From contig DATFEW010000163.1 of assembly GCA_035250805.1 (NCBI GenBank), positions 1-29,072 on the forward strand: a DNA stretch of 29,072 nt, read 5' to 3'. Positions 5,041 to 29,072 of this stretch are shown here, piece after piece (position 1 is the first letter of the stretch; each line of letters opens with the position of its first letter). The DNA comes from Pyrinomonadaceae bacterium (GTDB lineage Bacteria; Acidobacteriota; Blastocatellia; Pyrinomonadales; Pyrinomonadaceae). The translations under genes were made by a program, and so were the position numbers. The notes beneath the pieces are model-generated. The model had not been told where the DNA came from. It saw only the letters and a list, made by a program, of their open reading frames with translations, and made no database searches.

Positions 5041-5096
5041 AGGTCTGTTCCCACAGAATTGCCGATTTCGATTCCAAACAGAGAGGTTACGAAAAC

Positions 5097-13216: not shown

Positions 13217-15370
13217 TTGACAGCAGATAAGGCGAACATTCTTAAATTGCCGGTGCGCGAAGCGATCTCCTATGTGTTCGATGACTTCCGTCTTGATGTA
13301 GAACGGCAGGAATTACAGAAAAAAGGCCAACCTGTCCCGTTAACCCACAAGGCTTTCCAGGTCCTGCTTATACTTATCCAAAATTCAGAACAAACGGTCG
13401 AAAAAGAGTACATATACGAGCAACTCTGGGGCGACAGTTTCGTTGAAGATGCGAACCTCACGCAGCACATATACATTCTTCGCAAAACACTCGGTCAGAT
13501 GCCCTCCGGCGACTCTTATATAGAAACTGTCGCAAGGACCGGATATCGATTTTCGGCCAAGGTGCGCCCGATTTATTCCCCGACGGTCATCGACGGTTAC
13601 TTTGCACCGAACCACCCCGCCGAACCTTCGATGCAGCGGGAGTCGCTGCCTGCCGACGGACAACATCTGGGATGGGCCGAGCCGCCGGCACCAACAAGTT
13701 CGCAACCGCAAGTTTCCGAACGGGCCTCTAATGTTGGTGATACGACGCGACCCGAGACGCGAAAGCGAGGACGAAAACGAGGCATCCTGGCAGCGGCGGC
13801 CCTCGTAGGACTTTCAGTCGCGGTCATTGTCCTGGCCGTATATTTTCGTCCGCAGAGTTCCCCGGTCCCCGGCGGTAGGGCCCGCTCTCTCGCGGTACTT
13901 CCATTCAAAGCGATAGGCGGGAACGGAAACAATGACAAGCTCGGTCTCGGCATGGCGGACTCGATCATTACGCGGTTGAGCAAGCTCCAACATATACCGG
14001 TCCGCCCGACCAGTTCGGTCGTTCGGTACACGGACGCTCCGGCCTCAAATTCTATGGTCGCCGGACAGGAAATGGGTGTCGAAACCGTTCTTGAGGGTAC
14101 GGTGCAGCACGAAGGTGACCGCATTCGAGTGTCTGTACAGCTAATCGATGTTTACACCGGGCGTTCGCTGTGGGCAGAGAACTTTGACGAAAGTTTTACA
14201 AACATATTTTCGGTGCAGGATTCGATCTCGCATAAAGTAGTAAGCGCGCTGGCGATCAATCTTACCCAACAACAGGAACAGCTCCTTAGCCAGGATGCGA
14301 CCAACAGCGTGGACGCCCTTCAGGCATACCAGATGGGCGTTTACCTTCACAGTACCCGGACGAAACAAAATATGCTTCGAGCCATCGATTATTTTGAAGA
14401 AGCGATCGGCCACGACCCGAACTATGCGAAGGCTTATGCAATGGAGGCCGACGTTTACAATATGCTTCGATACTATCGCTACGCCGACCCGAACGAGACA
14501 CGGGAGAAGGCCACGGTGCTTGCAAATAAGGCGTTGGAACTCAATAAAGATATACCCGAGGCGTACATCGCACTTGCAAATCTGCAGGACACCGGGAAGG
14601 ACGGGGCGGCCGGGGCCAAAAAGCTTCTTGAAAAGGCGATCGAGCTTTCTCCTTACAATTCTACGGCACGCCTCCGCTACGCATGGATCATTGCTGACGA
14701 TGATCTCGACGCGGCCTCGGAACAAATGCGGCTTGCACAGGAATACGATCCGCTTTCCGGGCTTACTAACGGGGCCTATTGCAACATTCTGATATTTCAA
14801 AAGCGCTATAAAGAGGCTATCCGATTTGGCGAACGTTCGGTCGAATTGACATTTGATTCGCCAACAACACGCATTCTGCTTGCCGATGCATACTTTCTCG
14901 ATGGTCGAGTTGGAGATGCGATCGCGCAGATCAATAGACGGATCAGCGAGACAGAGGGGACAGAAAAATTAATGGCGGAAGGGTCACTCGGATACTACCT
15001 CGCCAAATCCGGCAGGACACAGGAGGCAGCTTCGATCTATACGCGCTTGAAAGCTGCTCTAGAGGCACATGCTCAGGTTATTAACGACCTTGTCCTGATC
15101 GCTTACGCCTTAGGACGTATCGACGAAGGCCTCCGGTATTTCGAACGCGCTTTTAAAGAGAGCCGGGTTCCGATGCTTATGTTCGATCACAGCCCGATCT
15201 GGGAGGACGTGCGCGGCGACAAGCGTGTTTATGATGTGATCGAACGGTTGAGAACTGACCGCTTTACCGGACAAGTTTGGCCGGAGCCGAAAAGAGCTCC
15301 AAACTTCCGTGAGCAAGGAGATATGTTCCCACCAAACGGCCGTCCCGATCTCGCCGTACGAAGTCTATAA
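13217..15370 (+). CDS. Membrane-anchored winged-helix (CadC/OmpR-type Trans_reg_C) regulator with TolB-like and TPR periplasmic region
   Basis: N-terminal FDDFRLD…LLILIQNS…LWGDSFVEDANLTQHIYILRKTLG…YIETVARTGYRF, then a Pro-rich linker and one TM helix (GILAAAALVGLSVAVIVLAVYF). These are followed by SLAVLPFK…LGLGMADSIITRLSKL and TPR-like helices (AIGHDPNYAKAYA, AIELSPYN, AQEYDPLS). Start codon (TTG) is uncertain. Confidence 0.85.
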   Translation: MTADKANILKLPVREAISYVFDDFRLDVERQELQKKGQPVPLTHKAFQVLLILIQNSEQTVEKEYIYEQLWGDSFVEDANLTQHIYILRKTLGQMPSGDSYIETVARTGYRFSAKVRPIYSPTVIDGYFAPNHPAEPSMQRESLPADGQHLGWAEPPAPTSSQPQVSERASNVGDTTRPETRKRGRKRGILAAAALVGLSVAVIVLAVYFRPQSSPVPGGRARSLAVLPFKAIGGNGNNDKLGLGMADSIITRLSKLQHIPVRPTSSVVRYTDAPASNSMVAGQEMGVETVLEGTVQHEGDRIRVSVQLIDVYTGRSLWAENFDESFTNIFSVQDSISHKVVSALAINLTQQQEQLLSQDATNSVDALQAYQMGVYLHSTRTKQNMLRAIDYFEEAIGHDPNYAKAYAMEADVYNMLRYYRYADPNETREKATVLANKALELNKDIPEAYIALANLQDTGKDGAAGAKKLLEKAIELSPYNSTARLRYAWIIADDDLDAASEQMRLAQEYDPLSGLTNGAYCNILIFQKRYKEAIRFGERSVELTFDSPTTRILLADAYFLDGRVGDAIAQINRRISETEGTEKLMAEGSLGYYLAKSGRTQEAASIYTRLKAALEAHAQVINDLVLIAYALGRIDEGLRYFERAFKESRVPMLMFDHSPIWEDVRGDKRVYDVIERLRTDRFTGQVWPEPKRAPNFREQGDMFPPNGRPDLAVRSL

Positions 15371-16130
15371 CAATGAAACCGGCTGCGAGCGCTTCTGAAA
15401 AAATCCGTCGAGTTTCTTCGCGCCACAGCCGGGCTCGGTTCGGATCAATAGAATTAATGTCGTCGGGAATTTCGATCGCAACGGCACCTCCGGTCTCGGG
15501 AATCGACGCGACGGTTTCAGGCGCATTCCCATCTGTGCAGCGGATCAAAATGTTCTGATAAGTATCTGTAAATTCGGGCGGCGAATTTTGCTGGACCCTG
15601 TTCTCTACGCGCGCGCTGTCCAGAAGCCATGTGACCCAGAGCCGGTCGGTACCTGTTTGATGGAGCGGACTTGAAGTAGTTTCTCCGTAGAAATCGATCT
15701 TGTACTTGTCCGCAAGGACACCAAGCTTCCCGAAATTGAAGTGTGCGTTCATGCTCTGAAGCGGGTCAAACGTCCATGTCATCCTTTTAATGCCTTGTTC
15801 AAGAGCTCGATCACGCTGGGCCATTTTCAGTCGGTAACCAAGGTTATGGCGGCGATATGATGATCGGACGGCAAGCATATGAGAGTGATGAACTATCGCC
15901 CCGTCTTCCCGGCCAACAAATCCAAAAGCAAACCCGACGAGTGAAGAGCCTTCAAATGCGCCGATCAGAATTCCGCCAGACTCTCGTGCCGCAACGAGCA
16001 TCGTCAGTGGGACGATGTCGCGGTCGTCGCAACCCCAAACCTCCTTCTCCAGGGTCTCGACCACGCGCATCTCCTGAATGCTCTCTATGTCGCGGATAAT
16101 AATGTTCGCTGTTTCCGTTGCACGGGACAT
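15264..16130 (-). CDS. GNAT acyltransferase, likely D-amino-acid N-succinyltransferase type
   Basis: HSHMLAV…YRRHNLGYRLKMAQR…MTWTFDPLQSMNAHFNFGKLG…FYG…TDRLWVTW is the GNAT subfamily found beside NSAR/OSBS genes. No signal peptide. Confidence 0.75.
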   Translation of the reverse strand: MSRATETANIIIRDIESIQEMRVVETLEKEVWGCDDRDIVPLTMLVAARESGGILIGAFEGSSLVGFAFGFVGREDGAIVHHSHMLAVRSSYRRHNLGYRLKMAQRDRALEQGIKRMTWTFDPLQSMNAHFNFGKLGVLADKYKIDFYGETTSSPLHQTGTDRLWVTWLLDSARVENRVQQNSPPEFTDTYQNILIRCTDGNAPETVASIPETGGAVAIEIPDDINSIDPNRARLWREETRRIFSEALAAGFIVIDFVRRDRDGRLVGTYLLAHGSLELFSAPAKLVR

Positions 16131-16144
16131 GCAGAAAGTGTAGA

Positions 16145-17098
16145 TCAGGAGCCGTTGTTATCAGAATCTTTCGGCTCCCGGTACCAGCGGGGCCCGGCCG
16201 CGTACTCCCGGTCGGTCGGCCTCAGTCGATTCAGCGAACGCTTTGGATCGATATGCGCGCATGCTACGTGGATGGCGCTGATCAGCGCGGTGGGTGCTAC
16301 ATAGGAATTTAGAAATGAAGGGCTGACCACCGAGGCGATAAGGTGAGAGTCGCAATAGCGCGCTATCGGCGTCGAATCGCTGTCAGTGATACCAAAGGTT
16401 GGCACGCCTTGTTTTTTTGCCTGAAGCACGGCCTCTACGGTATCCCTGAGACACTGGCCGAAACTGATAGCTATCAGAACGTCCTTCGATGTCAGAACTT
16501 CGACTTTGTATTGCAGGGATCCCGTGCTTCCGACCGGCGCCTCGGCGTCGAAACCAAGACTCGAAAGTCCGTAGGCCAGACATGTAGCAAGCGAAGATGC
16601 GAAATCTATTCCTATGACAAGAACTCGCCGCGAGCGCTTGATGGCTTTCGCAAGTTCGATCACGCGCGGCCGGTCAAGCTCAGATTTCAACGCGTTTAGA
16701 TTCTCCAGTGATTTGTCCAGGGCGTGATCGACATGATCGGCGACGCTGCGCTTTTCCTTCGTTGCGGCCTTCAATGCCGCATAAGGTGTGATCCGCGCGA
16801 CGAAATGCTGGCGAAGGTCGGCAGCAAAGTCGGCATAGCTTTCGTAACCCATCACCTGGGTTGCCCGCAGGATGGTGCTGGCGTCGACGTTGTACCGTTT
16901 CGCGAGCTCTCGCGAGGAGAGAAAATAAGTCTCGTCAGCGGAATCAAAAATGGCGCGGACCAGCTGCCAGCGGCGTGGATTAAGCCGGGATTGAGCCTCG
17001 GCAAAGCGGGTTTCCAGCGCGGTCGGCGGGATCTTTCCATCTGCTTCGAGTAGGCCGCGGGAATTTCGTGGTCTCTTGCGCGAAATGGAGCTCATCAA
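16145..17098 (-). CDS. MurR/RpiR family transcriptional regulator (HTH + SIS domain)
   Basis: FLSSRELAKRYNVDASTILRATQVMGYESYADF is the RpiR HTH. VLVIG…LAYGL…DVLIAISF…T…AK…GVPTFGITDS…PIARYCD is the SIS domain. Confidence 0.88.
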   Translation of the reverse strand: MMSSISRKRPRNSRGLLEADGKIPPTALETRFAEAQSRLNPRRWQLVRAIFDSADETYFLSSRELAKRYNVDASTILRATQVMGYESYADFAADLRQHFVARITPYAALKAATKEKRSVADHVDHALDKSLENLNALKSELDRPRVIELAKAIKRSRRVLVIGIDFASSLATCLAYGLSSLGFDAEAPVGSTGSLQYKVEVLTSKDVLIAISFGQCLRDTVEAVLQAKKQGVPTFGITDSDSTPIARYCDSHLIASVVSPSFLNSYVAPTALISAIHVACAHIDPKRSLNRLRPTDREYAAGPRWYREPKDSDNNGS

Positions 17099-17110
17099 TT
17101 TCTACCTCCG

Positions 17111-18283
17111 CTACATTTTGCCGTTTCGTTCAATTCGCTCCAGGGCCTGTGTGTTCGCCTCAATATGATCGAGATCTACCTTGAATCCCAAACCCGGTTT
17201 TAGGGGAACGTCCACCGTGCCTTTATCAGAAACACTCACTTCCGGCTCGATCACATCTTTGGAAAAATAACGAGAGCTTGCGGAGATGTCGCCCGGGAGC
17301 GTGAACCCGGGCAAACTTGCAAGTGCGATGTTATGTGCGCGCCCGACACCTGATTCGAGCATGCCGCCGCACCAGACAGGTACGTTTCTCGAATGACACA
17401 GATCGTGGATCGCCAATGCCTGCGAGTAGCCGCCTACCCTTCCGATCTTGATATTGATCATCCTGCAGCTTTCCATATGGAGTGCCTGCTCGGCTCGTCG
17501 TAAACCAGTGATGCTTTCATCCAGGCAGATCGGTGTCCGCATCTTCGATTGAAGTTCTGCATGATCGATCAGGTCGTCATGATCGAGGGGCTGCTCGAGC
17601 ATAAGAAGCTCAAGTTCGTCAAGCCCCAGCAGATGATCGGCGTCGCCGATCGTGTAAGCCGAGTTTGCATCGACCGAAAGTAAGATATCAGGATGTCGCT
17701 GCCGCACCTCTCTGACAATATCCACATCCCAACCGGGTTTGATCTTGAGCTTGATCCGTTGATAACCCAGTCCCAGGTACAGGTCGATGCGTCTCAGTAA
17801 TTGATCAAGCGAAGGTTGGATCCCGAGGCTCACTCCTACCGGAACACTCTCGCGCGTACCTTCGATCAACTCGGATAAGGACTTACCCTCCACCCGCGCG
17901 AGAAGATCCATATAAGCGAGTTCCAATCCGGCCTTGGCCATATTGTGTCCGCGAAACTGTGCGAACCGTCCTGCGAGGTCATCAAGATCTTCGATCGGAC
18001 GCGACAGGACAGCGGGTGCCAAATGGTCTTGAATGACTCGGTGGGCAGTGCCGACGGTTTCGTAGCTGTAGCGCGGTTCTTCCTCCGCGACGACCTCGCC
18101 CCACCCGGTAAACCCTTCGCCGTCAAGTCTGACAAGAAAGATCAACCGCGAGTCGATCCGGCCAAAACTTGTTTCAAATGGTTCAATCAATGGAAGGCGG
18201 ACAAGGCGGATCTCGGCTCGTTCGATCTCGACCGTTCTCGCTGCAAATGATCGGCTGTTCACAATTTTGGAGGATGGCTGCAC
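17111..18283 (-). CDS. menC: N-succinylamino-acid racemase / o-succinylbenzoate synthase (NSAR/OSBS, enolase superfamily)
   Basis: PFETSFG, KLKIKPG (KxK), DANSAY, EQPL, DESI, NIKIGRVGG, WCGGMLESGVGRAHN, PGDISASSRYF. There are no men genes nearby and a GNAT is in the operon, which favours the racemase role over menaquinone synthesis. Confidence 0.88.
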   Translation of the reverse strand: MQPSSKIVNSRSFAARTVEIERAEIRLVRLPLIEPFETSFGRIDSRLIFLVRLDGEGFTGWGEVVAEEEPRYSYETVGTAHRVIQDHLAPAVLSRPIEDLDDLAGRFAQFRGHNMAKAGLELAYMDLLARVEGKSLSELIEGTRESVPVGVSLGIQPSLDQLLRRIDLYLGLGYQRIKLKIKPGWDVDIVREVRQRHPDILLSVDANSAYTIGDADHLLGLDELELLMLEQPLDHDDLIDHAELQSKMRTPICLDESITGLRRAEQALHMESCRMINIKIGRVGGYSQALAIHDLCHSRNVPVWCGGMLESGVGRAHNIALASLPGFTLPGDISASSRYFSKDVIEPEVSVSDKGTVDVPLKPGLGFKVDLDHIEANTQALERIERNGKM

Positions 18284-18335
18284 GACCGATAAGATAGCAA
18301 ATCAAAACCTGCGAGGCAAGAAAGAATGCAGTATG

Positions 18336-18361
18336 TGTTGCACTATTGACATTGTGCAACA
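18336..18361. promoter_or_regulatory. Inverted repeat (candidate RpiR operator) enclosing a TTGACA -35 hexamer in the divergent promoter region
   Basis: TGTTGCAC-N10-GTGCAACA perfect 8-bp arms. The spacer contains TTGACA (18346-18351). Imperfect -10 TAAATA at 18369. Confidence 0.5.
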
Positions 18362-18438
18362 TTTGCGGTAAATATCGTCTGTCAGTTTAAACGATCCCCA
18401 ACCGATCAATAAATAACAAGGTTATTTTCTATCTTACT

Positions 18439-19968
18439 ATGCGACAACGAATGCTTGGCTTGGCCACCTTTACGCTCCTTTTCCTGCTGCTCTCGCAACT
18501 TGTACACGGACAACTAAACGGATTCGACGAATACGTCACCAAAGCTATGCGCGATTGGGAGGTTCCGGGCATCGCAATAGCAGTTATTAAGGACGATAAG
18601 ATCGTGCTTGCCAAGGGGTATGGAGTAAGACAGCTTGGTGCAGAAGCGCCGGTCGACGAGCGGACGCTGTTCGCTATCGGATCCTCGTCGAAGGCATTTA
18701 CCGCAGCGGGACTTGCGATGCTTGTGGATGAAGGCAAGATCAAATGGGACGATCCGGCGGTCAAACATTTACCGGGCTTCGAAATGTTCGATCCCTATGT
18801 CACCCGCGAATTAAGGATCCGTGATCTTTTGACACATCGCAGCGGTCTGGAACGTGGGGATTTTCTTTGGTACGGGTCGGAGCTAGACCGCGATGAGATC
18901 CTGCGGCGCACCCGCTATCTGAAACCCACCTGGAGCCTTCGGAGCAATTTCGGTTATCAAAATCTTATGTACCTTGCCGCGGGACAGGTCGCCGCGAAGG
19001 CAACAGGGAAAAGCTGGGACGAATTCATAAAAAGCCGAATTTTTACCCCCCTGGGCATGACCGCGAGCAACACGAGCATCAAAGATTTTAAGAATGGAGA
19101 TAATGTTGCGACGCCGCACGCCTCGGTCGAGGATAAGGTCCAGCCGATCGCCTGGCGTAACATCGACAATATTGCGCCGGCGGGTTCAATAAATTCGAAT
19201 GTCCTGGACATGGCCCAATGGGTTCGTCTGCAGCTTGGACAGGGCACCTTTGAGGGTAAGAAACTCATCAGTCCCGCTGCGATGAGGGAGATGCATATGC
19301 CGCAGACTGTTATGCGGCTAGAGGGTGCGTATACGATGTTCTATCCCGAGGCGCACTTTCTTACTTATGGGCTCGGGTGGTTCATGCATGACTACAAAGG
19401 CAAGAAGGTCGTCGAGCACGGTGGAGCGATCGATGGCATGCGTGCCGGGGTGGCGATGATACCGGAGGAAAAACTTGGTGTCGTCATTTTGACAAACATG
19501 AACGGCTCGCTGCTTCCCATACCGCTCATGTTCAAGGTATTTGATGCCTATCTGGGCGGCACCCAAAAAGATTGGAGCGCGGATATGCTCAAAGCGCTCA
19601 AACCATTGCAGGAACAGGGAAAGGCGGCCGAAAAGAAAGCGGAATCGGAACGCGTCATGGGTACCAATCCGTCACTGGCGCTTGAGAAGTATGCAGGCAC
19701 CTATAAGAACGATCTGTACGGTGAGGTTAAAATAAATAACGAAGGCGGCAAATTAAATATTAACTTTGGCCCGGCGTTTAAGAGCGACCTTCAGCATTGG
19801 CATTACGACACCTTTAGAGCACAGTTCAATGGACCGGTCGCCTCGAAGGTACTTGTTGCGTTTGGGCTAAATCCGCAGGGAAAAGCAGATACGGTAACGT
19901 TAGGTTTATTTTCGGACTATCCATTCAAGCGTGTCCCGGATCCACCGCTTGCGAAGGCTGCACAATAG
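18439..19968 (+). CDS. Secreted beta-lactamase-family serine hydrolase (D-peptidase/AmpC-like) with DUF3471-like C-terminal domain
   Basis: SxxK (GSSSKAF), LLTHRSG, YQN, EHGG. C-terminal LEKYAGTYKN…YG. Signal peptide ending LVHG|Q. Confidence 0.88.
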   Translation: MRQRMLGLATFTLLFLLLSQLVHGQLNGFDEYVTKAMRDWEVPGIAIAVIKDDKIVLAKGYGVRQLGAEAPVDERTLFAIGSSSKAFTAAGLAMLVDEGKIKWDDPAVKHLPGFEMFDPYVTRELRIRDLLTHRSGLERGDFLWYGSELDRDEILRRTRYLKPTWSLRSNFGYQNLMYLAAGQVAAKATGKSWDEFIKSRIFTPLGMTASNTSIKDFKNGDNVATPHASVEDKVQPIAWRNIDNIAPAGSINSNVLDMAQWVRLQLGQGTFEGKKLISPAAMREMHMPQTVMRLEGAYTMFYPEAHFLTYGLGWFMHDYKGKKVVEHGGAIDGMRAGVAMIPEEKLGVVILTNMNGSLLPIPLMFKVFDAYLGGTQKDWSADMLKALKPLQEQGKAAEKKAESERVMGTNPSLALEKYAGTYKNDLYGEVKINNEGGKLNINFGPAFKSDLQHWHYDTFRAQFNGPVASKVLVAFGLNPQGKADTVTLGLFSDYPFKRVPDPPLAKAAQ

Positions 19969-20031
19969 AGTTTGGGCATCAGGATCTTTAGACTATTTCA
20001 AATAATTTTCTTGAGGAAAGGAGCATTAGTT

Positions 20032-23000: not shown

Positions 23001-23298
23001 ACAGGACTTGACGCAGGACGCTGACGGAAACAGCAATTTCAATGGCGTCGATGTAATTGCAGGAAGAAATGCATTTACGGCGGAGCCGTTTATTAATACC
23101 GATATTCGGTTTTCGAAGCGATTCAACCTCGGCGAACGCGTAAAGCTGCAGGTCTTGCTTGAGTTCTTCAATCTTTTCAATCGTCAAAACCCGGCCCAGG
23201 CACAAGGTCTTGACACTGTGCCGGCTCAACCTTTTGGATCGACACTTCAGGTGTTGCCGGGAAGAGAGGGACAGATCGGATTTAGAATTGAGTTTTAG
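20032..23298 (+). CDS. TonB-dependent receptor 3 with N-terminal carboxypeptidase-regulatory-like domain
   Basis: ATG 20032 follows AAAGGAG; the ORF track starts at 19972. Motifs GVVTDANGAIVAGA, LPVSGRDYLDLMQLVPG, ETIAEFQV, AEFGQASG, YVQDDWKIRKNLTINLGLRWD, NFSPRLGVAW, LEFFNLFN. C-terminal FRIEF. Confidence 0.92.
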   Translation: MKALHCRFLVDLGGAAGKAARSRYSSSLIILSLMLVFASASSAQTTTSTIQGVVTDANGAIVAGATVKVTSPVLGSERTVTTDQEGLYRIAALPAGTYTVTVTGKGFGEKVATIELTLNRVATYDVQLAVGAVGGNVVEVTDALPLLEPNTSSTGSTITPKQIQDLPVSGRDYLDLMQLVPGVAINRQSSGDNANPVLGERSGNNNFFIDGQPNKDTVNGGPAAQFNQETIAEFQVLTTGYKAEFGQASGAIINVISRSGGNQFHGVGSYFHRNDALDSSNSLDPAVTEAPELSRHDYSLALGGPIWKDKIFFFGSMERITEDRGVNFTFPQNLPPVLADLIHAQEDPFDGPQMSRETRAFLKFNQHFGNHQLVQEMNYTNEHITGQGVGFPSSRTNSSGRRLMLAFGDTMLLGDQANPWITTLRAAFRDEPSAQGPTNPDIVGAIVFVPFTATVQLPPFNFSNLPVAGDLGILQFGSAATPSHLTQNYSSFGANTNKLFGDHDIKFGWQYLRTKVDGIDSSTLAIQRYTTVADYVNFGPQNSGVMLIGESGAPTPEAGEIHLLNHYNGLYVQDDWKIRKNLTINLGLRWDHDSEFEANTNFSPRLGVAWAVTPKTVIRAHFGKFYDQFRLGLVRQVPAFGGSDNRFVQSIYLPRGFYGSPNIVTNLAWLSGLPGPCVSNTLTDAQIAANPGTPQTTCPFGLPIVGVDRLNRVVAPNHAVIPANTPFNRDNIQDLSGLSPEDWLVQAAAAIGMPAGYFNWGAFGMLNNPIIPPRQLPTTVDSTFRTPHTIGFSVGVQRELTPDMVLAVDYHHREMKNLLGIRTSNLAFESRVLGRRFLPPNTTGEIQTFGPFFEGRYDALVASFNKRLSNRYMLGANYTWASATDNSRGIFTTPSDNFIGTVPLVTDPGRVATATTPACPSQNNQNAPFTACNGKFVAQAGTFLNGPDLDKGPSSLALSHIFQVFGLVDLPWQFQISGIFRAQSGFRFSRQDLTQDADGNSNFNGVDVIAGRNAFTAEPFINTDIRFSKRFNLGERVKLQVLLEFFNLFNRQNPAQAQGLDTVPAQPFGSTLQVLPGREGQIGFRIEF

Positions 23299-23317
23299 CT
23301 TTGCCTGTCAGAACGGC

Positions 23318-23362: not shown

Positions 23363-23379
23363 CAGTAAACGGAGTATTT

Positions 23380-24756
23380 TTGATGAGAATTTCTAGGTTT
23401 GTAATATTTACCGCTTTGTTCGTCTCGTTCGTTCATGTGTCGGTCGCACAGCAGCCGGCACCGCTGGATCCGAGCCAGATCATCCCGAAGATCGAAGAGT
23501 ACATGGGTGCTGTCGAGAAGATCGACCGCTTTAGCGGCACCGTTCTCGTTGCGAAAGATGGAAAGCCGATCTTTAGCAAAGGGTACGGAATGGCTAATAA
23601 GGAATGGGACATTCCTAATTCGCCGCAGACCGCCTTTCGTCTTGGCTCGATCACAAAACAGTTTACGTCGGCGGCGATAATGCTTCTGCAGGAGCGCGGC
23701 AAGCTCAATACAGCCGATCCGGTTTGCAAGTACGTTGCAGAATGCCCGGCGACCTGGGAACCGATCACTATCCGTCACCTGCTGACCCACACCTCGGGAA
23801 TCGCAAATTACACGGATTCGCCTGACTTCGCAAAAAAGGCAATTCTGCCGATCTCGGTCAATGACCTGCTAGCCGACTACAAAAGCAAACCGCTCGATTT
23901 TGCTCCGGGTGAGAAATTTAACTATAGCAATTCCGGTTATCACCTACTTGGCGTGATCGTAGAAAAGGCATCTGGTCAGTCGTACAAAGACTTCCTACAG
24001 GAGAACATTTTCACGCCGCTGGGTCTTAAGGACACGGGCTACGATAGCCACCAGAACATCATTAAGCGCCGTGCGGCCGGATACAAGCGAAACGGCGACG
24101 GCTTCGTCAACGCTGCGTATATGGACATGCTGATACCTTATGCGGCGGGCGCATTGTATTCGACCACGGAAGATCTTCTAAAGTGGGAACAGGCTCTCTA
24201 TACCGAAAAGCTGCTGACGAAGAAATCTCTCGATGAAATGTTTACTCCTTTAAAAGGCACTTACGCATACGGCTGGAATGTGGGTAAGCGTGGGAATCGA
24301 AGGTCGATCTCGCACGGCGGCGGCATCTATGGGTTTGCGACGCAGTTAGCTCGATTTCCTGACGATAAAGTTACGGTCGTGGTATTGAGCAATGTCGAAG
24401 GGGCCTCGGCAGGAGCGGTTGCGAACAATCTTTCGGCGATCGTCTTTGGAGACCCGGTTACGCTGCCGAAGCAACGCACGGCGATCACGCTGCCCGCGCA
24501 GGCCTTTGAAAAATATGTGGGTGACTATCAGCTTCTGCCTGCGGTGGTTCTGACGGTATCGACTGAAGGCGGAAAGATCTTTATGCGGATCACCGGACGC
24601 GAAAATATGGAGCTGTTTCCCGAGACCGAGAAGGACTTTTTTCTCAAGGTCGTCGACGCGCAGCTAAAATTTGAAACCGATGCGTCGGGCAAGGTTACGC
24701 AGCTCATTTTCAAACAAGGCGCCGGCAACGGAATAACCGCTCCCAAGATCAAATAA
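23380..24756 (+). CDS. Secreted beta-lactamase-family serine hydrolase with DUF3471-like C-terminal domain
   Basis: SxxK (GSITKQF), HLLTHTSG, FNYSNSGY, SHGGG. C-terminal FEKYVGDY…ELFPETEKDFF. Signal peptide ending VSVA|Q. Start is TTG 23380 or ATG 23383. Confidence 0.88.
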   Translation: MMRISRFVIFTALFVSFVHVSVAQQPAPLDPSQIIPKIEEYMGAVEKIDRFSGTVLVAKDGKPIFSKGYGMANKEWDIPNSPQTAFRLGSITKQFTSAAIMLLQERGKLNTADPVCKYVAECPATWEPITIRHLLTHTSGIANYTDSPDFAKKAILPISVNDLLADYKSKPLDFAPGEKFNYSNSGYHLLGVIVEKASGQSYKDFLQENIFTPLGLKDTGYDSHQNIIKRRAAGYKRNGDGFVNAAYMDMLIPYAAGALYSTTEDLLKWEQALYTEKLLTKKSLDEMFTPLKGTYAYGWNVGKRGNRRSISHGGGIYGFATQLARFPDDKVTVVVLSNVEGASAGAVANNLSAIVFGDPVTLPKQRTAITLPAQAFEKYVGDYQLLPAVVLTVSTEGGKIFMRITGRENMELFPETEKDFFLKVVDAQLKFETDASGKVTQLIFKQGAGNGITAPKIK

Positions 24757-24773
24757 GTCCGTAGTAAACGTAT

Positions 24774-26438
24774 ATGAATTGCAAACGTCACCTCACTTTT
24801 CTGGTGTTGATCGGCCTGATGCTGTCAGGCCTTTTGCCGCAACACCTTGTCGCGCAAACTCCCGAAGGCGCCTACGATATTGTGATCCGCAACGGCCGCG
24901 TGCTCGATGGAGCAGGCAATCCGTGGATACTCGCCGATGTTGGGATCAAGGACGGCCGCTTTGTGAAGATCGGCAAGGTCGACGGAAAGGGCAAGCGCGA
25001 GATCGACGCTGGCGGGAAGTACGTGTCGCCCGGCTGGATCGATATGCTGGATGCGTCTGGCGGCGTTTTGACACGAAACCCACTGGCGGAAAGCAAGCTG
25101 CTGATGGGCGTGACGACAGGCATCGGCGGTGAAGGCGGCACTCCGGTGCCGGCTGAGAAACTCTCAGAATATTTCGCGGGTCTCGAGAAAAGCGGCATCA
25201 GCATGAACTTCGGCACCTACTACGGTGCTACGCAGGCGCGCGTAGCCGTCATCGGGTCAGAAGCTCGCGACCCAAATGCCGAAGAGCTTTCAAAAATGAA
25301 GTCCATAGTTGAAACGGCAATGAAAGGCGGTGCGCTTGGAATATCGACAGCCCTCATCTATCCTCCGGCAAGCTATTCAAAAACAGAACAGCTAATTGAA
25401 TTAGCAAAGGTTGCCGGTCGCTACGGCGGGGTTTATTCGAGCCACATCCGCGGAGAAGGGAAAGAGTTGATCGAGTCTATCAACGAAGCAATTACGATCG
25501 GCGAAAAGGGTGGACTGCCGGTCGAGATCTATCATCTCAAAGCGGCCTATCAGCCCGGCTGGGGAACGCTGATGCGTCAGGCCGGCGAGACGATCGAAAA
25601 AGCACGCAGCCGCGGCCTCGATGTTGCCGCGGATATGTATCTTTACACCGCTGGCGGGACGTCGTTATCTGCCGTTGTCCCGTCGTGGGCGGCGGACGGC
25701 GGTCGAGAAAAGATGCTGGAGCGCCTCAAGGATCCGGCCAATCGCGCGCGGCTCAAGAATGAAATAAAGACCGGCTCACCCGGATGGTGGAATATCGTCG
25801 AAGCTGCCGGGGGATGGAAACAGGTCGTGCTTGCCTCGTCCGGCAATCCGGAACATAAACGATTTGAAAACAAAAATATTGAGCAGATCGCAAAGGAATG
25901 GAACAAAGATCCGGCGGACGCTGCCTTCGACCTCATAACAGAGAGTAACAACCGGGCTGGGGCGCTTTATTTCATGATGTCGGATGCGGATGTTGAAACC
26001 GCGATCAAGTATCCGTGGATCAGCTTCGGCAGCGATGCGGCTGCGTCTCCGCAATTGATGGATCCGAACACGGTCGGCAACGGGCACCCTCGTGGCTATG
26101 GAAATTTTCCGCGGGTGATCGCAGAATATGTTCGTAAGAAGAAAATAATTACTCTTCCTGAAGCGATCAGGAAAATGACCTCATGGCCGGCGACACGTCT
26201 GCGGCTCCCGTCGCGCGGAACTATAAAGGAAGGCAACTGGGCGGATGTTGTTATTTTCGATTATGACAAGATCCAGGACAACGCCACTTATGAATATCCC
26301 TTCCGTACACCGACAGGCATAGATCAAGTACTCGTGAACGGCCAGATCGTGATCGAGAACGGAAAGCACACAGGAGCCCGGCCCGGACATGTTCTGTACG
26401 GCCAGGGTCGTGTCGTTCCGACAATGGCCGCAAATTAG
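24774..26438 (+). CDS. Secreted N-acyl-D-amino-acid deacylase (D-aminoacylase)-like amidohydrolase, paralogue 1
   Basis: YDIVIRNGRVLDGAGNP, SHIRGEG, EIYHLK, FGSDA, HPRGYGNFPRV, EAIRKMTSWPA, ADVVIFD, VLVNG. Signal peptide ending HLVA|Q. Confidence 0.85.
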   Translation: MNCKRHLTFLVLIGLMLSGLLPQHLVAQTPEGAYDIVIRNGRVLDGAGNPWILADVGIKDGRFVKIGKVDGKGKREIDAGGKYVSPGWIDMLDASGGVLTRNPLAESKLLMGVTTGIGGEGGTPVPAEKLSEYFAGLEKSGISMNFGTYYGATQARVAVIGSEARDPNAEELSKMKSIVETAMKGGALGISTALIYPPASYSKTEQLIELAKVAGRYGGVYSSHIRGEGKELIESINEAITIGEKGGLPVEIYHLKAAYQPGWGTLMRQAGETIEKARSRGLDVAADMYLYTAGGTSLSAVVPSWAADGGREKMLERLKDPANRARLKNEIKTGSPGWWNIVEAAGGWKQVVLASSGNPEHKRFENKNIEQIAKEWNKDPADAAFDLITESNNRAGALYFMMSDADVETAIKYPWISFGSDAAASPQLMDPNTVGNGHPRGYGNFPRVIAEYVRKKKIITLPEAIRKMTSWPATRLRLPSRGTIKEGNWADVVIFDYDKIQDNATYEYPFRTPTGIDQVLVNGQIVIENGKHTGARPGHVLYGQGRVVPTMAAN

Positions 26439-26455
26439 CAATCGCCGAAGTAATT

Positions 26456-28111
26456 ATGATTAAAGTTCGACGCAGTATTTCGGGGATCCTGCTTTGCGTC
26501 CTCGCGCTGAGCCTTTCACCATTACACCTATCGGCGCAGACGGCTGAACCTAGTTACGACATCGTGATCCGCAACGGGCGTGTTCTGGACGGCGCGGGCA
26601 ATCCATGGATCCTCGCGGACGTCGCAATAAACGACGGCCGCTTCGTAAAGATCGGCATGGTGGACGGAAAAGGCAAGCGCGAGATAGACGCGCGCGGCCA
26701 ATACGTCTCGCCGGGTTGGATCGATGTGATGGATCAATCAGGAAGCGTCCTGCCGCAAAACGGCTTGGCGGAAAACAAGTTGATGATGGGCGTCACTACC
26801 GCGATCGGCGGTGAGGGTGGAACGCCTGTTCCCGCTGAAAGGGTTGCGGAATATTTTTCCGGACTTGAAAAAAGCGGCATCAGCATTAATTTCGGCTCCT
26901 ATTTCAGTGAGACCCAAGCCCGAGCCGCGGTCCTTGGAATGCAGTCGCGAGGACCGAATGCTGAAGAACTCGCGCGAATGAAGGCGATCATGGAAACAGC
27001 CATGAAAGCCGGTGCCATGGGAATGACCACGGCTTTAATTTATCCGCCGTCCAGCTACGCGACGACCGAAGAACTGATCGAAATGGCGAAGGTCGCGGCT
27101 GCACACGGCGGCATCTACGCCAGCCATATTCGCGGTGAGGGTAAGGAGCTTGTCCAGGCGGTGGAAGAGGCGATCACGATCGGAGAGAAGGGCGGATTGC
27201 CGGTCGAGATCTTTCACCTTAAAGCCGCTCATCAGCCCGGATGGGGAAAACTCATGCGTGAGGCGGGTGAGAAGATCGAGCAGGCACGTGCCAGAGGGGT
27301 TGATGTCGCGGCAGATATGTATCTCTATACTGCCGGAGGCACCGGACTGGAGGCCGTAATTCCTTCCTGGGCGTTCGAGGGCGGTGAGCAGAAGCTGCTC
27401 CAACGCCTCAAAGACCCAGCTACGCGTGAGCGGCTAAAGAACGAGATCAAAACTGGTTCGCCAGGGTGGTGGAATATTGTCGAGGCATCGGGCGGCTGGG
27501 AAAACATCGTCCTCGTAAACGCGCAAAATAAGGATAACGCGCGGTTCGAAGGAAAGACGTTGGCTGCGATCTCAAAAGAGGTGGGCAAAGACCCGGCAGA
27601 TACCGCATTCGATCTGGTAATGCAGGGTAGCGGCCGTGTGTATGCGATCTATCACATGATGAGTGAGCAGGACATTACGACGGCTCTGAAGTTTCCGTGG
27701 ACCAGCATTGGGAGCGATGCGGGTGCGGCGCTAAAGCCGGGGGCGGTAGACGGTTTAGGCCTTGCCCACCCACGAAGCTACGGGAATCATGCGCGGCTTA
27801 TTGCGCGTTATGTCCGCGAGCAAAAAGTGATCACGCTCGAAGACGCGATACGCAAAATGACGTCGTGGCCCGCGACCCGAATGCGGCTTGCGTCCCGCGG
27901 CATGATCAAAGAGGGGAACTGGGCAGATGTGGTGATATTCGATTACGAAAAGATCCAGGACCGGGCAACGTATGAGAAACCGCTGCTTAACCCAGTCGGT
28001 ATCGATCATGTTCTCGTAAACGGCCAGGTCGTAATAGAGAATGGGAAACACACGGGCGCGCGTCCGGGTCACGTCCTCTACGGGCCGGGCCGCAAGACAT
28101 CGTTAAATTAA
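26456..28111 (+). CDS. Secreted N-acyl-D-amino-acid deacylase-like amidohydrolase, paralogue 2
   Basis: Collinear tandem paralogue of 24774-26438: SHIRGEG, EIFHLK, IGSDA, HPRSYGN, RKMTSWPA. Signal peptide ending HLSA|Q. Confidence 0.85.
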   Translation: MIKVRRSISGILLCVLALSLSPLHLSAQTAEPSYDIVIRNGRVLDGAGNPWILADVAINDGRFVKIGMVDGKGKREIDARGQYVSPGWIDVMDQSGSVLPQNGLAENKLMMGVTTAIGGEGGTPVPAERVAEYFSGLEKSGISINFGSYFSETQARAAVLGMQSRGPNAEELARMKAIMETAMKAGAMGMTTALIYPPSSYATTEELIEMAKVAAAHGGIYASHIRGEGKELVQAVEEAITIGEKGGLPVEIFHLKAAHQPGWGKLMREAGEKIEQARARGVDVAADMYLYTAGGTGLEAVIPSWAFEGGEQKLLQRLKDPATRERLKNEIKTGSPGWWNIVEASGGWENIVLVNAQNKDNARFEGKTLAAISKEVGKDPADTAFDLVMQGSGRVYAIYHMMSEQDITTALKFPWTSIGSDAGAALKPGAVDGLGLAHPRSYGNHARLIARYVREQKVITLEDAIRKMTSWPATRMRLASRGMIKEGNWADVVIFDYEKIQDRATYEKPLLNPVGIDHVLVNGQVVIENGKHTGARPGHVLYGPGRKTSLN

Positions 28112-28130
28112 CCGAACAGGAGAAACGATA

Positions 28131-29072
28131 GTGAAAAGACTGACAGCGCTGGTCATGATCGGCCTGATCCTTTTATCAATTGTGGCGGGTCAGGTTCCGC
28201 CTGCGCCTAAAGCCGATGAACCGCAGCCTGCGGACAAACCCGCCGTTGGCGCATTCTCGATGACTGCCGCTGATGTCGAAGCGTTTCTCGACGGCGTACT
28301 GCCCCAGCAACTCGAACGCGAGAATATCGCGGGCGCTACGGTAGCTATTGTTAAGGACGGAAAGCTCTTGTTTTCAAAAGGTTACGGCTACTCTGATGTA
28401 GCGAGTAAAAAACCTGTCTCCCCGGAAGAAACCTTATTCCGTCCCGGTTCGGTTTCCAAGCTGTTCACTTGGACCGCTGTGATGCAAATGTATGAGCAGG
28501 GCAAGCTCGATCTTGACGCCGACGTGAATCAGTATCTCGATTTCAAGATACCCGATGCGTTCGGTGCGCCGATCACATTAAAGCACATCATGACGCACAC
28601 GCCCGGGTTCGAGGAGCAGGTAAAGGATCTTTTCGCGGTCAGTGACGTGACGCCGAACCTTGGGGAGTATCTAAAGACACACATTCCCACTCGTATTTTT
28701 CCGCCGGGTACCACTCCGGCGTATTCAAACTACGCAACAGCTCTCGCTGGCTATATTGTTGAGCGGGTTTCGGGGCAGCCGTTCAATGACTATGTGGCTG
28801 AACACATCTTCAAACCTCTGCAGATGACCCGTTCGACGTTTGCTCAGCCGCTCCCTGAAGAGTTCAAACCCAATATGTCTTCGGGATATCGGCTCGCGTC
28901 TGATACAGAGACGGTTCCTTTTGAGGTGGTCGTTCCGTTTCCCGCGGGCAGCCTGAGTAGTACTGCGGTCGATATGTCGCAGTTCATGCTGGCCCATCTC
29001 CAGGAAGGACAACACGGCGGGGCTCAAATCCTAAAGCCGGAAACCGTGCAACTTATGCACACCCGGTTATTT
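28131..29072 (+). CDS. Secreted beta-lactamase-family serine hydrolase, 3'-truncated by the window edge
   Basis: Absent from the ORF track because no stop lies in the window. My translation from GTG 28131 (AGGAG RBS): MKRLTALVMIGLILLSIVAG|QVPP…FSKGYG…FRPGSVSKLFTWTAVMQ…HIMTHTPGF…AYSNY…PAGSLSSTAVDM. It is open to 29072. Confidence 0.88.
   Translation, partial: MKRLTALVMIGLILLSIVAGQVPPAPKADEPQPADKPAVGAFSMTAADVEAFLDGVLPQQLERENIAGATVAIVKDGKLLFSKGYGYSDVASKKPVSPEETLFRPGSVSKLFTWTAVMQMYEQGKLDLDADVNQYLDFKIPDAFGAPITLKHIMTHTPGFEEQVKDLFAVSDVTPNLGEYLKTHIPTRIFPPGTTPAYSNYATALAGYIVERVSGQPFNDYVAEHIFKPLQMTRSTFAQPLPEEFKPNMSSGYRLASDTETVPFEVVVPFPAGSLSSTAVDMSQFMLAHLQEGQHGGAQILKPETVQLMHTRLF

Follow-up and report, generated by a model that had tools for sequence, protein, structure and literature searches.

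A gene cluster on a 29,072-nt contig of a Pyrinomonadaceae bacterium (hereafter the window, which comprises the whole contig) probably belongs to a conserved accessory system of Acidobacteriota for using D-amino-acid-containing peptides or N-acyl amino acids. Judged from its gene content, it is a strong candidate for a route by which debris of bacterial cell walls or peptide antibiotics would serve as food, with the peptidoglycan stem peptides of dead bacteria and non-ribosomal peptides as the likely substrate sources. The cluster is accessory: roughly one in three species of the genus has it. No description of such a gene cluster was found in the literature searched, although the novelty claimed in a preliminary description of this DNA has to be tempered for two pairings: an S12 D-peptidase gene adjoining those for a D-aminoacylase and a peptide transporter was reported in 2009 (PMC2651629), and a TonB-dependent transporter (TBDT) adjoining a D-aminoacylase was predicted from genome context in the gammaproteobacterium NOR5-3 in 2012 (PMC3400609).

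Organisation of the locus

The locus consists of a cytoplasmic operon and an exported operon that diverge from a common control region (Table 1). The open reading frames were found where the preliminary description had placed them, and its spacings (minus-strand genes 12 and 14 nt apart, plus-strand genes 17-81 nt apart, 155 bp between the operons) and domain contents were likewise recovered, the latter by profile searches (Pfam, NCBIfam). It had also assigned signal peptides to the plus-strand products, and this holds: all of them exhibit signal-peptide-like N-termini (basic n-region, hydrophobic core and an A-x-A/Q-like end, as read by eye), which the three minus-strand products lack. For the transporter, the ATG at 20032 is the probable start codon. 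The last 64 bp of the window recur without mismatch at the end of contig C355, and across this exact overlap the SH3 reading frame runs on unbroken: the complete protein has 650 aa with approximately 4 C-terminal membrane helices, and the operon extends on C355 with a Tat-signal M19 dipeptidase gene 11 nt after SH3 (M19 model, 255 bits). The locus encodes no SusD, desuccinylase or inner-membrane transporter.

Table 1. Features of the cluster within the window.
Feature	Position	Strand	Evidence
GNAT acyltransferase, 288 aa, no signal peptide	15264-16130	-	PF00583 30.8 bits (cut-off 20.7)
RpiR/MurR-family regulator	16145-17098	-	Pfam HTH_6 + SIS
N-succinylamino-acid racemase (NSAR; NSAR/OSBS subfamily, enolase superfamily)	17111-18283	-	MR_MLE_N/C; TIGR01928 342 bits (cut-off 200.65)
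Divergent control region, 155 bp	18284-18438		26-bp palindrome inside
SH1, exported S12 serine hydrolase, Pab87/CubicO-like	18439-19968	+	Beta-lactamase 227.8 bits + DUF3471 64.6 bits
TonB-dependent transporter, Oar-type architecture	19972-23298	+	CarboxypepD_reg 67.7 bits, Plug, OMP_b-brl_4 241.5 bits, TonB_dep_Rec_b-barrel
SH2, exported S12 serine hydrolase	23380-24756	+	Beta-lactamase 261 bits + DUF3471
DAA1, exported D-aminoacylase-family amidohydrolase, variant metal site	24774-26438	+	Matches to solved D-aminoacylases 1RJP/1M7J (E 2e-64)
DAA2, exported tandem paralogue of DAA1, same variant site	26456-28111	+	1RJP/1M7J matches (E 1e-64 for the DAA1/DAA2 pair)
SH3, S12 hydrolase, N-terminal 314 aa in window	28131-29072	+	Beta-lactamase 188.5 bits; contig end cuts gene

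Conservation of the gene set

We compared 80 species-level loci: 11 whose NSAR is at least 61.5% identical to that of the window, and 69 more distant ones. The former together with the window form one clade (SH-aLRT 95), within which a TBDT and S12 hydrolases are each present in 9 of the 11 loci, with both loci that lack the transporter ending at a contig edge; of the 69 distant loci, 4 have a TBDT within 10 kb. The synteny test proposed in the preliminary description gave a positive result, as other Pyrinomonadaceae/Blastocatellia and Thermoanaerobaculia have the gene set (NSAR, RpiR, GNAT, TBDT, S12 hydrolases, D-aminoacylase-like amidohydrolases and M19 dipeptidase) again, with its members rearranged. 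Four Thermoanaerobaculia loci (L008, L009, L011 and L012) are co-linear, with the order NSAR-RpiR-M20-GNAT-TBDT-S12-DAA: cytoplasmic and exported genes stand here in one string that includes an M20 desuccinylase. Loci from the same genus as the window (L096-L101) contain these families too, differently ordered, and here GNAT and NSAR stand between exported hydrolase genes. GNAT orthologues occur in 8 of the 29 published species of this genus, all 8 being among the 9 with hydrolase genes and the GNAT gene always lying on the contig of the hydrolase cluster; presence and absence of the two arms match. The NSAR type of the window was not found in these 29 species, whose clusters use another NSAR lineage and add general peptidases (tricorn/S41, S15). 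Because the gene set recurs shuffled across two acidobacterial classes and presence/absence matches within the genus, the two operons are functionally linked, as had been supposed.

NSAR and the proposed D-to-L conversion route

The NSAR/OSBS assignment of the preliminary description could be resolved in favour of NSAR. The enzyme matches the NSARs of PDB entries 2ZC8 (E 1e-106) and 1SJA (E 1e-100), and K178/K180, D205, E230, D255, K279 and R282 are equivalent to K161/K163, D189, E214, D239, K263 and R266 in the Amycolatopsis enzyme; none of the catalytic and second-shell residues, R266 included, is lost. No MenB above cut-off was detected in the bacterium's own genome or in 20 relatives (21 genomes; 14 of the relatives at least 90% complete), and there is thus no menaquinone route here that would require an OSBS; since MenB is absent and the NSAR residues are kept, the predicted activity is that of a racemase rather than of the menaquinone enzyme. 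The GNAT has no NCBIfam match, no close PDB match and none to any characterised enzyme. Its homologues (28-55% identity) adjoin NSAR in approximately 60 of the 80 loci, from Acidobacteriota, Chloroflexota (including Roseiflexus) and Bacillota, those of Roseiflexus and Bacillota falling below the Pfam GNAT thresholds, and we regard it as a candidate D-amino-acid N-succinyl/acyl-transferase.

The pathway of GNAT, NSAR and M20 is established in Geobacillus (2006 paper, as outlined in bioRxiv 10.1101/2022.03.03.481873), and the claim that the locus encodes such a route stands for the racemase with its full residue set, but not for the M20 L-desuccinylase; the GNAT beside the racemase is a putative equivalent of the Geobacillus succinyltransferase. 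As far as that outline goes, the window shares with Geobacillus the NSAR subfamily and the adjoining GNAT, and the Thermoanaerobaculia version also the M20; the window differs in lacking M20, and its NSAR route is coupled with a transporter of the outer membrane, exported hydrolases of D-peptidase families and an RpiR regulator. M20 is absent from the window and from the same-genus clusters, and the candidates in the bacterium's own genome are one protein of 28-31% identity and one 45-residue fragment at a contig edge. An inner-membrane transporter is encoded in no version of the cluster. The D-glutamate route of DgcN-DgcA (Yu et al. 2023, as summarised in PMC12363236) follows a common logic, namely acylation of the D-amino acid (N-acetylation), racemisation of the N-acyl form (N-acetyl-D-Glu) by an enolase-superfamily enzyme and deacylation (deacetylation); however, the window racemase reaches 83 bits against a DgcA model cut-off of 400, and its acyltransferase is a GNAT in place of the DUF1611 protein of that summary.

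Exported hydrolases

All three S12 enzymes carry the SxxK/YxN/HxG motifs (SH1: S82-x-x-K, Y173-x-N, H327-G-G; SH2: S90-x-x-K, Y182-x-N, H312-G-G; SH3: S107-x-x-K, Y198-x-N, H340-A-G). The top PDB match of SH1 is 2QMI (Pab87), followed by ClbP, whilst SH2 matches Pab87 (3e-40), alkaline D-peptidase 4Y7P, R61 DD-peptidase, D-amino-acid amidase and D-aminopeptidase 1EI5. Against the class C beta-lactamase model, SH1 stays below the cut-off (100.6 bits, cut-off 415). Pab87 from Pyrococcus abyssi, an S12 enzyme with shown activity on D-amino-acid peptides and muropeptides, is the best solved relative of SH1 and SH2, to which they are likened by sequence and by their common build of a penicillin-recognising domain and a C-terminal domain; Pab87 itself forms octamers. 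Its gene neighbours the D-aminoacylase PAB0090 and a dipeptide ABC transporter (PMC2651629), so that both systems combine an S12 enzyme, a D-aminoacylase and peptide uptake, and the Pab87 system, like the window cluster, was proposed for using environmental D-peptides (PMC2651629). Unlike the exported window enzymes, Pab87 is archaeal, cytoplasmic and paired with an ABC importer, in a system that has neither an NSAR/GNAT route nor an outer-membrane step. The M19 dipeptidase is conserved within the cluster, its adjacency to SH3 being found also in L004, L096 and L097, and the clusters of relatives add VanX-type D-Ala-D-Ala dipeptidases, M19 and M20: L007 contains an S12 + VanX (M15) fusion, and in L099 a VanX gene follows NSAR.

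The two proteins named D-aminoacylases in the preliminary description do belong to that family, but lack its defining HxH and Cys ligands: in DAA1, L92/A94 replace HxH and G-E120-G replaces G-N-C-G, with the substitute Glu aligned one column ahead of the bridging Cys (Cys96), whilst H224, H254 and D421 are retained. This variant site (no HxH, no bridging Cys) defines a conserved subfamily with both DAA1 and DAA2 as members, whose closest relatives include S12+DUF3471+DAA, S12+DAA and S13 (PBP4-type)+DAA fusions, all with the same site. Activity has been proven for D-acylases without the bridging Cys (PMC12149444); the substrate of DAA1/DAA2 could nevertheless differ from N-acyl-D-amino acids. 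The D-amino-acid theme as such was upheld by the kinship of the S12 enzymes to D-stereospecific Pab87, by the VanX, M19 and M20 enzymes of relatives and by the fusions of DD-peptidases with the DAA variant.

Transporter and regulator

Transporter orthologues (53-66% identity) lie within the same cluster in other Pyrinomonadaceae; the transporters of the Thermoanaerobaculia clusters are only approximately 30% identical to that of the window and are putative orthologues. As in SusC/SusD polysaccharide utilisation loci (PULs) and Oar-subclass transporters, a TBDT with a CarboxypepD_reg-type N-terminal extension stands amid exported degradative enzymes with a dedicated regulator. The locus, which the preliminary description had called built like a PUL, does not qualify as a strict PUL, because a SusD partner is absent; in addition, its transporter falls well short of the SusC/RagA model (20.5 bits, cut-off 368), and PUL substrates are glycans whereas those proposed here are peptides. 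In NOR5-3 a D-aminoacylase likewise stands beside an outer-membrane transporter, read as serving uptake of N-acyl-D-amino-acid derivatives, but that case comprises two adjacent genes, with neither peptidases nor an NSAR route or regulator, and included no analysis of conservation (PMC3400609).

Within the NSAR clade (identity of at least 61.5%), 10 of the 11 loci have RpiR adjoining NSAR, against none of the 69 more distant loci. The divergent region contains a 26-bp palindrome, TGTTGCAC-N10-GTGCAACA (18336-18361), which occurs once in the window where 0.02 matches would be expected and is a candidate operator; the Thermoanaerobaculia loci exhibit a single conserved palindrome upstream of the gene string. 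A sigma-70 consensus scan gave no site in the 155 bp. That a sugar-phosphate-type SIS regulator should stand over an amino-acid route counts against our main reading.

Proposed function and alternatives

On the basis of homology and gene context, the substrate would cross the outer membrane via the TBDT, for which the import direction is assumed. In the periplasm, three penicillin-binding-type S12 serine peptidases, two soluble and Pab87-like and one tethered to the inner membrane as ClbP is, would cleave at D-residues, and the Tat-exported M19 enzyme together with DAA1/DAA2 would act on dipeptides or N-acyl-D-amino acids to release D-amino acids, as family membership and the fusions suggest. 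These would reach the cytoplasm through a putative transporter encoded outside the cluster, where the GNAT would N-acylate (succinylate) them, NSAR racemise the N-succinyl derivative and an M20 desuccinylase free the L-amino acid; the latter, in-cluster in Thermoanaerobaculia, must then lie elsewhere in this genome. The RpiR/SIS regulator may act at the common promoter region to govern both arms. D-stereospecificity of the hydrolases and co-induction of the operons are predicted. The preliminary interpretation is partly supported: operon linkage, the D-amino-acid theme and the racemase stand, whilst a strict PUL, typical D-aminoacylase sites and an M20 in the locus find no support.

The gene content can be read otherwise. 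The ong cluster (PMC9537276) also combines a TBDT, a MurR/RpiR regulator and a D-aminoacylase homologue, OngB, which matches DAA1 (9KB1/9KB3, E 1e-50), and a sugar-like effector would suit the SIS regulator; an analogous amino-sugar-acid route for oxidised chitin, with the DAA paralogues deacetylating N-acetyl-glucosaminic acid, is nonetheless very improbable given that no GH20, KdgK, RidA, deaminase or SSS transporter occurs in the window or any related cluster, OngB is cytoplasmic whereas DAA1/DAA2 are exported, and the conserved partners are all peptidases, NSAR and GNAT. Equally slight is the chance of D-amino-acid synthesis through a natural dynamic kinetic resolution from L to D by GNAT, NSAR and D-aminoacylase: NSAR with a D-acylase is an industrial route (PMC12149444) and the window contains all three without an L-desuccinylase, but the DAAs and NSAR lie in different compartments (exported and cytoplasmic, respectively), the Thermoanaerobaculia version carries M20, and the transporter and many peptidases would be left without a role. 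A housekeeping role, in which the cell recycles or remodels its own peptidoglycan and NSAR balances the D-amino-acid pool, would account for the DD-peptidase-like S12, VanX and M19 families and the S13 fusions. We consider it highly unlikely, as the cluster occurs in only 8-9 of the 29 published same-genus species (DNA or GNAT searches), few near-complete ones among them, an outer-membrane transporter stands at its centre, and the window has no MurNAc, anhydro-muropeptide or Mpl/Ldc-type recycling genes.

For the same class of substrates, transport could also run in the opposite direction, with one or more of the cluster hydrolases exported over the outer membrane, digestion outside and small products entering via porins. 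The Oar-subclass architecture (CarboxypepD_reg extension, Plug and barrel) and the missing SusD-like partner would fit this, Oar itself being an exporter required for secretion of the protease PopC in Myxococcus xanthus (PMC6434023); however, a related extension is found on SusC-type importers, nearly all characterised TBDTs import, and the membrane anchor of SH3 and the Tat signal of M19 suit periplasmic work, such that export appears unlikely. Somewhat less probable again is defence, in which the S12 enzymes would be D-stereospecific resistance peptidases that inactivate D-residue-containing peptide antibiotics and the other enzymes would detoxify the freed D-amino acids: the S12 peptidases BogQ and TriF cut non-ribosomal peptides at D-residues (PMC9541196), SH1 resembles ClbP, SH3 is membrane-anchored as ClbP is, and the cluster's accessory distribution agrees with such a role. 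Resistance would not require the transporter, both deacylases, the dipeptidase and the complete D-to-L route, and the tricorn/S41 and S15 peptidases of the same-genus versions look catabolic. Defence and nutrition are mutually compatible readings.

Layout of the locus

An open reading frame list and profile searches bore out the gene layout claimed in the preliminary description of the locus at 15264-29072: a cytoplasmic arm on the minus strand, encoding an enolase-superfamily enzyme (NSAR), an RpiR-type regulator and a GNAT protein, and an exported arm on the plus strand, encoding three S12 serine hydrolases (SH1–SH3), a TonB-dependent transporter and two D-aminoacylase-family amidohydrolases (DAA1, DAA2). 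The claimed spacing was likewise found (minus-strand gaps of 12 and 14 nt, plus-strand gaps of 17–81 nt), as was the split between compartments: by inspection, signal-peptide-like starts are present on all plus-strand products and on none of the three minus-strand products. The window is an entire contig (C210) of a 77%-complete genome in 413 contigs, and its best relatives lie in the Pyrinomonadaceae/Blastocatellia of the Acidobacteriota.

The locus could be followed past the contig edge through an exact 64-bp overlap, by which C210 joins the reverse complement of contig C355 (L092) from the same genome. The SH3 frame runs on into C355 to 650 residues in all, with about four C-terminal membrane helices, and an M19 dipeptidase gene with a twin-arginine-type (Tat) signal and a convergent esterase-family gene follow. 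Since related clusters show the same SH3-M19 neighbours, we consider this join credible. At the other end of the locus, the GNAT gene and an OmpR-type/TPR regulator gene overlap by 107 nt at their 3' ends; the last 12–16 GNAT residues are not conserved in orthologues, and thus one of the two overlapping tails may not be real. Further upstream the window holds two more Oar/OMP_b-brl_4-type TonB-dependent transporters, with a Fis-type HTH gene and the OmpR/TPR regulator nearby, and, 14 kb upstream of the locus, a further member of a D-peptide family: a Peptidase_M55 (DppA-type D-aminopeptidase) enzyme scoring 317.7 bits, whose N-terminus resembles a signal peptide. Neither the Rfam nor the tRNA scan of the window gave a match.

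Features of the locus, its neighbourhood and related loci (window positions unless a locus is named)
Feature	Position	Strand	Basis or remark
Peptidase_M55	350-1258	+	
Fis-type HTH gene	4206-4649		
Upstream transporter	4971-9005		
Upstream transporter	9489-12920		
OmpR-type/TPR regulator	13217-15370	+	
Overlap of GNAT and OmpR/TPR genes	15264-15370		
GNAT	15264-16130	-	ORF list and profile searches
RpiR-type HTH_6+SIS regulator	16145-17098	-	ORF list and profile searches
Enolase-superfamily enzyme (NSAR)	17111-18283	-	ORF list and profile searches
Divergent region	18284-18438		155 bp, between minus- and plus-strand genes
Window palindrome	18336-18361		
SH1, S12 hydrolase + DUF3471	18439-19968	+	ORF list and profile searches
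TonB-dependent transporter	19972-23298	+	likeliest start: ATG at 20032
SH2, S12 hydrolase + DUF3471	23380-24756	+	ORF list and profile searches
DAA1	24774-26438	+	
DAA2	26456-28111	+	
SH3, S12 hydrolase	28131-29072	+	ORF list and profile searches; ends at contig edge
Contig overlap	29009-29072 = L092:3825-3888		
M19 dipeptidase, Tat-type signal	L092:1616-2827	-	11 bases past SH3
Esterase-family gene	L092:283-1380		convergent; beyond M19 on C355
Second NSAR of own genome	L095:1827-2948		contig C205
Start of transporter gene after second NSAR	L095:2896-3597		contig C205
S12+VanX fusion	L007:7426-9858	-	
SH3 counterpart, Thermoanaerobaculia	L011:17043-19049		
Tricorn-like S41 protease	L096:4224-7517		same genus
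S15 family enzyme	L096:7521-9395		same genus
TGCAAC-N4-GNTGCA sites	L007:9964, L008:3880, L009:1731, L010:9803, L011:9930, L012:9827		

Conservation of the gene cluster

All window proteins were mapped onto a sample of 80 species-level loci around NSAR homologues, in which a single clade (SH-aLRT 95 in a quick IQ-TREE search) unites the NSARs with identities of 61.5% or more. Within the 11 loci of this clade RpiR is adjacent in 10, and a TonB-dependent transporter and an S12 hydrolase are each present in 9, both transporter-less loci stopping at a contig end; among the 69 more distant loci RpiR is found in none, and there are four with a transporter no more than 10 kb away. Four Thermoanaerobaculia-type loci are co-linear, with the order NSAR-RpiR-M20-GNAT-transporter-S12-DAA, and here too M20, GNAT and NSAR are without signal peptides and the transporter, S12 and DAA proteins have them. 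One Thermoanaerobaculia-type cluster, L007, encodes divergently from NSAR a single 811-aa frame in which an S12 beta-lactamase-fold domain (61-388) is fused to a VanX-type M15 D-Ala-D-Ala dipeptidase (623-790); a VanX gene also follows NSAR in L099, from the window's own genus.

Parts of the hydrolase arm were detected at DNA level in 9 of 29 same-genus species (counts that leave out the unpublished genome G031), and GNAT orthologues in 8 of the 29, all within those nine and always on the hydrolase contig. The DNA-level search of the genus did not find the NSAR-RpiR-GNAT arm, because, as a protein search revealed, the same-genus clusters carry a different NSAR lineage (47–51% identical to that of the window). 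Six fetched same-genus regions hold the same families in other gene orders, for example transporter-tricorn/S41-S15-S12-DAA-SH1-GNAT-M19-SH3-NSAR on one strand, or RpiR-transporter-DAA-GNAT-M19-SH1-SH3-NSAR. The synteny across Acidobacteriota that the preliminary description had proposed as a check holds for the loci of the NSAR clade and the same-genus regions, as gene families that recur together in shuffled order, and such interleaving of cytoplasmic genes with those of exported enzymes is hard to explain without shared function. Chance clustering is ruled out by the synteny counts. The same-genus locus L096 has two further genes between those of the transporter and the D-peptidases: one for a tricorn-like S41 protease with PD40 repeats and tricorn C1/PDZ, the other for a member of the S15 X-Pro-dipeptidyl-peptidase family.

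The cytoplasmic arm

The enolase-superfamily enzyme falls into the NSAR/OSBS subfamily (TIGR01928, 342 bits against a curated cut-off of 200.65): solved N-acylamino-acid racemases match it at E-values of 1e-106 to 1e-97, with similarity over the full length to the NSARs 2ZC8 (4.5e-106) and 1SJA (1.2e-100). The functional residues are retained, with K178/K180 and K279 aligning to the acid/base lysines of KxK and K263, D205, E230 and D255 to the metal ligands D189/E214/D239, and R282 to the second-shell R266, which has been tied to racemase activity by the Glasner laboratory (bioRxiv 10.1101/2022.03.03.481873). MenB (TIGR01929), the only step of the men pathway used as a test, scored above cut-off in none of 21 genomes (the window's own plus 20 relatives, of which 14 reach a completeness of 90% or more), with control genomes giving a signal. 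With no MenB over its cut-off in these genomes, OSBS activity is not needed for menaquinone synthesis, and this role is rejected; the enzyme is likely to act as a racemase, with N-succinyl amino acids as predicted substrate class.

The preliminary description had paired NSAR and GNAT as in Geobacillus, where the pathway consists of a GNAT succinyltransferase, NSAR/OSBS and an M20 L-desuccinylase (bioRxiv 10.1101/2022.03.03.481873). This stands in part: the GNAT gene lies two genes from NSAR, but profile searches found no M20 L-desuccinylase in the window or in the fetched same-genus clusters. M20 is present in five Thermoanaerobaculia-type clusters (L007-L009, L011 and L012), and the M20 elsewhere in the window's own genome is only 28–31% identical. 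GNAT itself lies weakly over the Pfam threshold, with no NCBIfam match, a best PDB match of only E 0.002 and no characterised relative. It is 40% identical to a GNAT-like gene adjoining NSAR in a locus of Roseiflexus, a genus with an NSAR operon that the literature places in the Geobacillus-type pathway, and GNAT homologues directly adjoin NSAR in about 52 of the 69 distant loci (Acidobacteriota, Chloroflexota including Roseiflexus, and Bacillota). The window's own genome encodes a second NSAR paralogue of 51% identity on the short contig C205, with a 593-aa ORF without Pfam match before it and, directly after it, the first part of another CarboxypepD_reg+Plug transporter gene.

Exported hydrolases and a variant D-aminoacylase branch

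The S12 motifs SxxK, YxN and HxG are present in all three hydrolases (SH1 S82/Y173/H327, SH2 S90/Y182/H312, SH3 S107/Y198/H340). In case of SH1 and SH2, the best solved relative is Pab87 of Pyrococcus abyssi, with which they share a two-domain build of a penicillin-recognising and a C-terminal domain, in SH1 and SH2 matched by Beta-lactamase and DUF3471; the alignment of SH2 to 2QMI pairs 54-424 with 23-415 of 447 and so enters the C-terminal domain. Further relatives are alkaline D-peptidase, R61 DD-peptidase, D-amino-acid amidase, D-aminopeptidase and ClbP. The hydrolases stay far under the equivalog cut-offs for class C beta-lactamase (NCBIfam bla_class_C, 95–104 bits against 415), for AmpH and for D-aminopeptidase, and have HxG as third motif in place of the KTG of class C beta-lactamase; model scores and motif together rule out a true AmpC beta-lactamase. 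SH3 departs from the Pab87-type build in its membrane-anchored C-terminus: the roughly four helices, and even the last residues (ending S-Y), are kept between Pyrinomonadaceae and Thermoanaerobaculia, a conservation that suggests a role for the membrane domain beyond anchoring the protein.

The naming of DAA1 and DAA2 as D-aminoacylases can be kept at the level of family homology, which spans the full length (DAA1: 1RJP 2.2e-64, 1M7J 3.2e-64, 3GIP 1e-58) but not of the metal site. While His220, His250 and the catalytic Asp366 are retained (H224, H254, D421), L92/A94 in DAA1 and M/Q in DAA2 take the place of the HxH ligands His67/His69, and G-E-G-G stands in place of G-N-C-G, so that the bridging Cys96 is lost and a Glu (E120 in DAA1) lies one column before it. 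Among about 125 family representatives (50% clustering) both His and the Asp hardly vary, and of the roughly 21 without HxH every one counted has the Glu and none the Cys: this retained pattern marks a variant site and not decay. The DAA orthologue of the Thermoanaerobaculia cluster shares it, a third paralogue elsewhere in the window's own genome is canonical, and a 95%-identical DAA1 homologue sits on a 1-Mb contig. D-acylases lacking the Cys bridge have been reported as active (PMC12149444), and the literature searched contained no characterised member of the HxH-less branch.

Natural fusions occur among the closest DAA representatives, of the types S12+DUF3471+DAA, S12+DAA, S13 (PBP4-type DD-carboxypeptidase)+DAA and class-A-like+DAA, an alpha/beta-hydrolase-domain fusion and a tandem DAA-DAA protein (P0139, P0252, P0132, P0126, P0123 and P0122), with the same variant metal site in the fusions to serine-hydrolase domains. 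Tentatively, and with slightly less than even confidence, we propose that this Glu-containing branch teams with DD-peptidase-like S12/S13 enzymes, to which it is sometimes fused, and that NSAR/GNAT then converts the released D-amino acids. If true, this would give a physiological role to NSAR as well as to D-acylases, both of which are best known from industrial work. To our knowledge, little has been established about what N-succinylamino-acid racemases and D-aminoacylases do in nature, although both are in industrial use.

Transporter and possible function of the cluster

The locus was originally likened to a polysaccharide utilisation locus, a comparison that fails for the transporter: it scores 20.5 bits on the SusC/RagA model TIGR04056, whose cut-off is 368, and no window ORF contains a SusD-like domain. 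Instead, it displays the architecture of the Oar subclass (PMC6434023), with a CarboxypepD_reg N-terminal extension, Plug and beta-barrel (PF13620 67.7, PF07715 28.7, PF25183 241.5 and PF00593 45.8 bits). The Thermoanaerobaculia transporters have the locus transporter (TBDR_c) as best match in the window's own genome, but at only about 30% identity, and may or may not be its orthologues.

From gene content, compartment split, motifs, linkage and the absence of MenB, the locus is best read as a putative scavenging route for D-residue-containing peptides or N-acyl-D-amino acids. These would cross the outer membrane, in the direction of transport that we infer, and in the periplasm the S12 enzymes, M19 and DAA variants may trim them, each on a predicted substrate. 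In the cytoplasm D-amino acids would be N-acylated, by the reaction presumed for GNAT, racemised and deacylated, with the SIS-type RpiR protein as probable regulator of the cluster. An inner-membrane transporter is encoded in no version of the cluster. Since the locus transporter has the Oar architecture and Oar is needed for export of a protease (PMC6434023), a transporter that, by analogy, exports the hydrolases of the cluster is a live alternative to uptake. The gene set agrees less well with other explanations: BogQ/TriF-like S12 enzymes that confer resistance to peptide antibiotics with D-residues (PMC9541196), reuse of material from the cell's own wall, D-amino-acid synthesis, and an amino-sugar-acid route like the ong cluster for oxidised chitin (PMC9537276). 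With the last the locus has only TBDR, RpiR and DAA-like (OngB-like) genes in common, whereas GH20 hexosaminidase, KDG kinase, RidA, the D-amino-acid-deaminase-like OngC and SSS transporter are missing from the window and related clusters.

Each part of the proposed scavenging route has a known counterpart, in the Geobacillus NSAR pathway, in Pab87-type D-peptidases, in D-aminoacylases or in TonB-dependent nutrient loci. Related ideas have been published on the gene neighbourhood of Pab87 and, as an analogous route, on DgcN-DgcA, from which the locus differs in its racemase (NF042940, 83.4 bits against a cut-off of 400) and in having no DUF1611 (DgcN) in the window. The claim of novelty is thus narrowed: the literature searched contains no description of an NSAR route linked with both exported D-peptidases and an outer-membrane transporter, but a TonB-dependent transporter adjoining a D-aminoacylase had been published (PMC3400609). 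As a whole, the conserved acidobacterial cluster is apparently undescribed, and it draws attention to a D-aminoacylase branch that is uncharacterised and differs in its metal site, as well as to candidate D-stereospecific peptidases that might serve in biocatalysis.

D-amino acids and peptidoglycan remnants make up a large, slowly turning-over share of soil organic nitrogen, and how the Acidobacteriota, among the most abundant soil bacteria, use them is poorly known. The association of NSAR and D-aminoacylases with an outer-membrane transporter and D-peptidase families offers a concrete, testable pathway.

Regulatory sequence

Scans for sigma-70 and terminator consensus sequences showed no excess of sites over shuffled sequence, and the divergent region had none. 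The window has a palindrome of its own, TTGCAC-N8-12-GTGCAA, found in no related locus and different from a 16-bp palindrome of the Thermoanaerobaculia-type clusters, TGCAAC-N4-GNTGCA, which neither the window nor other Pyrinomonadaceae contain; the two palindrome searches thus yielded no operator common to both groups. Within the Thermoanaerobaculia-type clusters, TGCAAC-N4-GNTGCA occurs exactly once per locus in all six (L007-L012), 37–208 bp upstream of NSAR and against a background of 0.007 per kb, which makes it a candidate RpiR operator.
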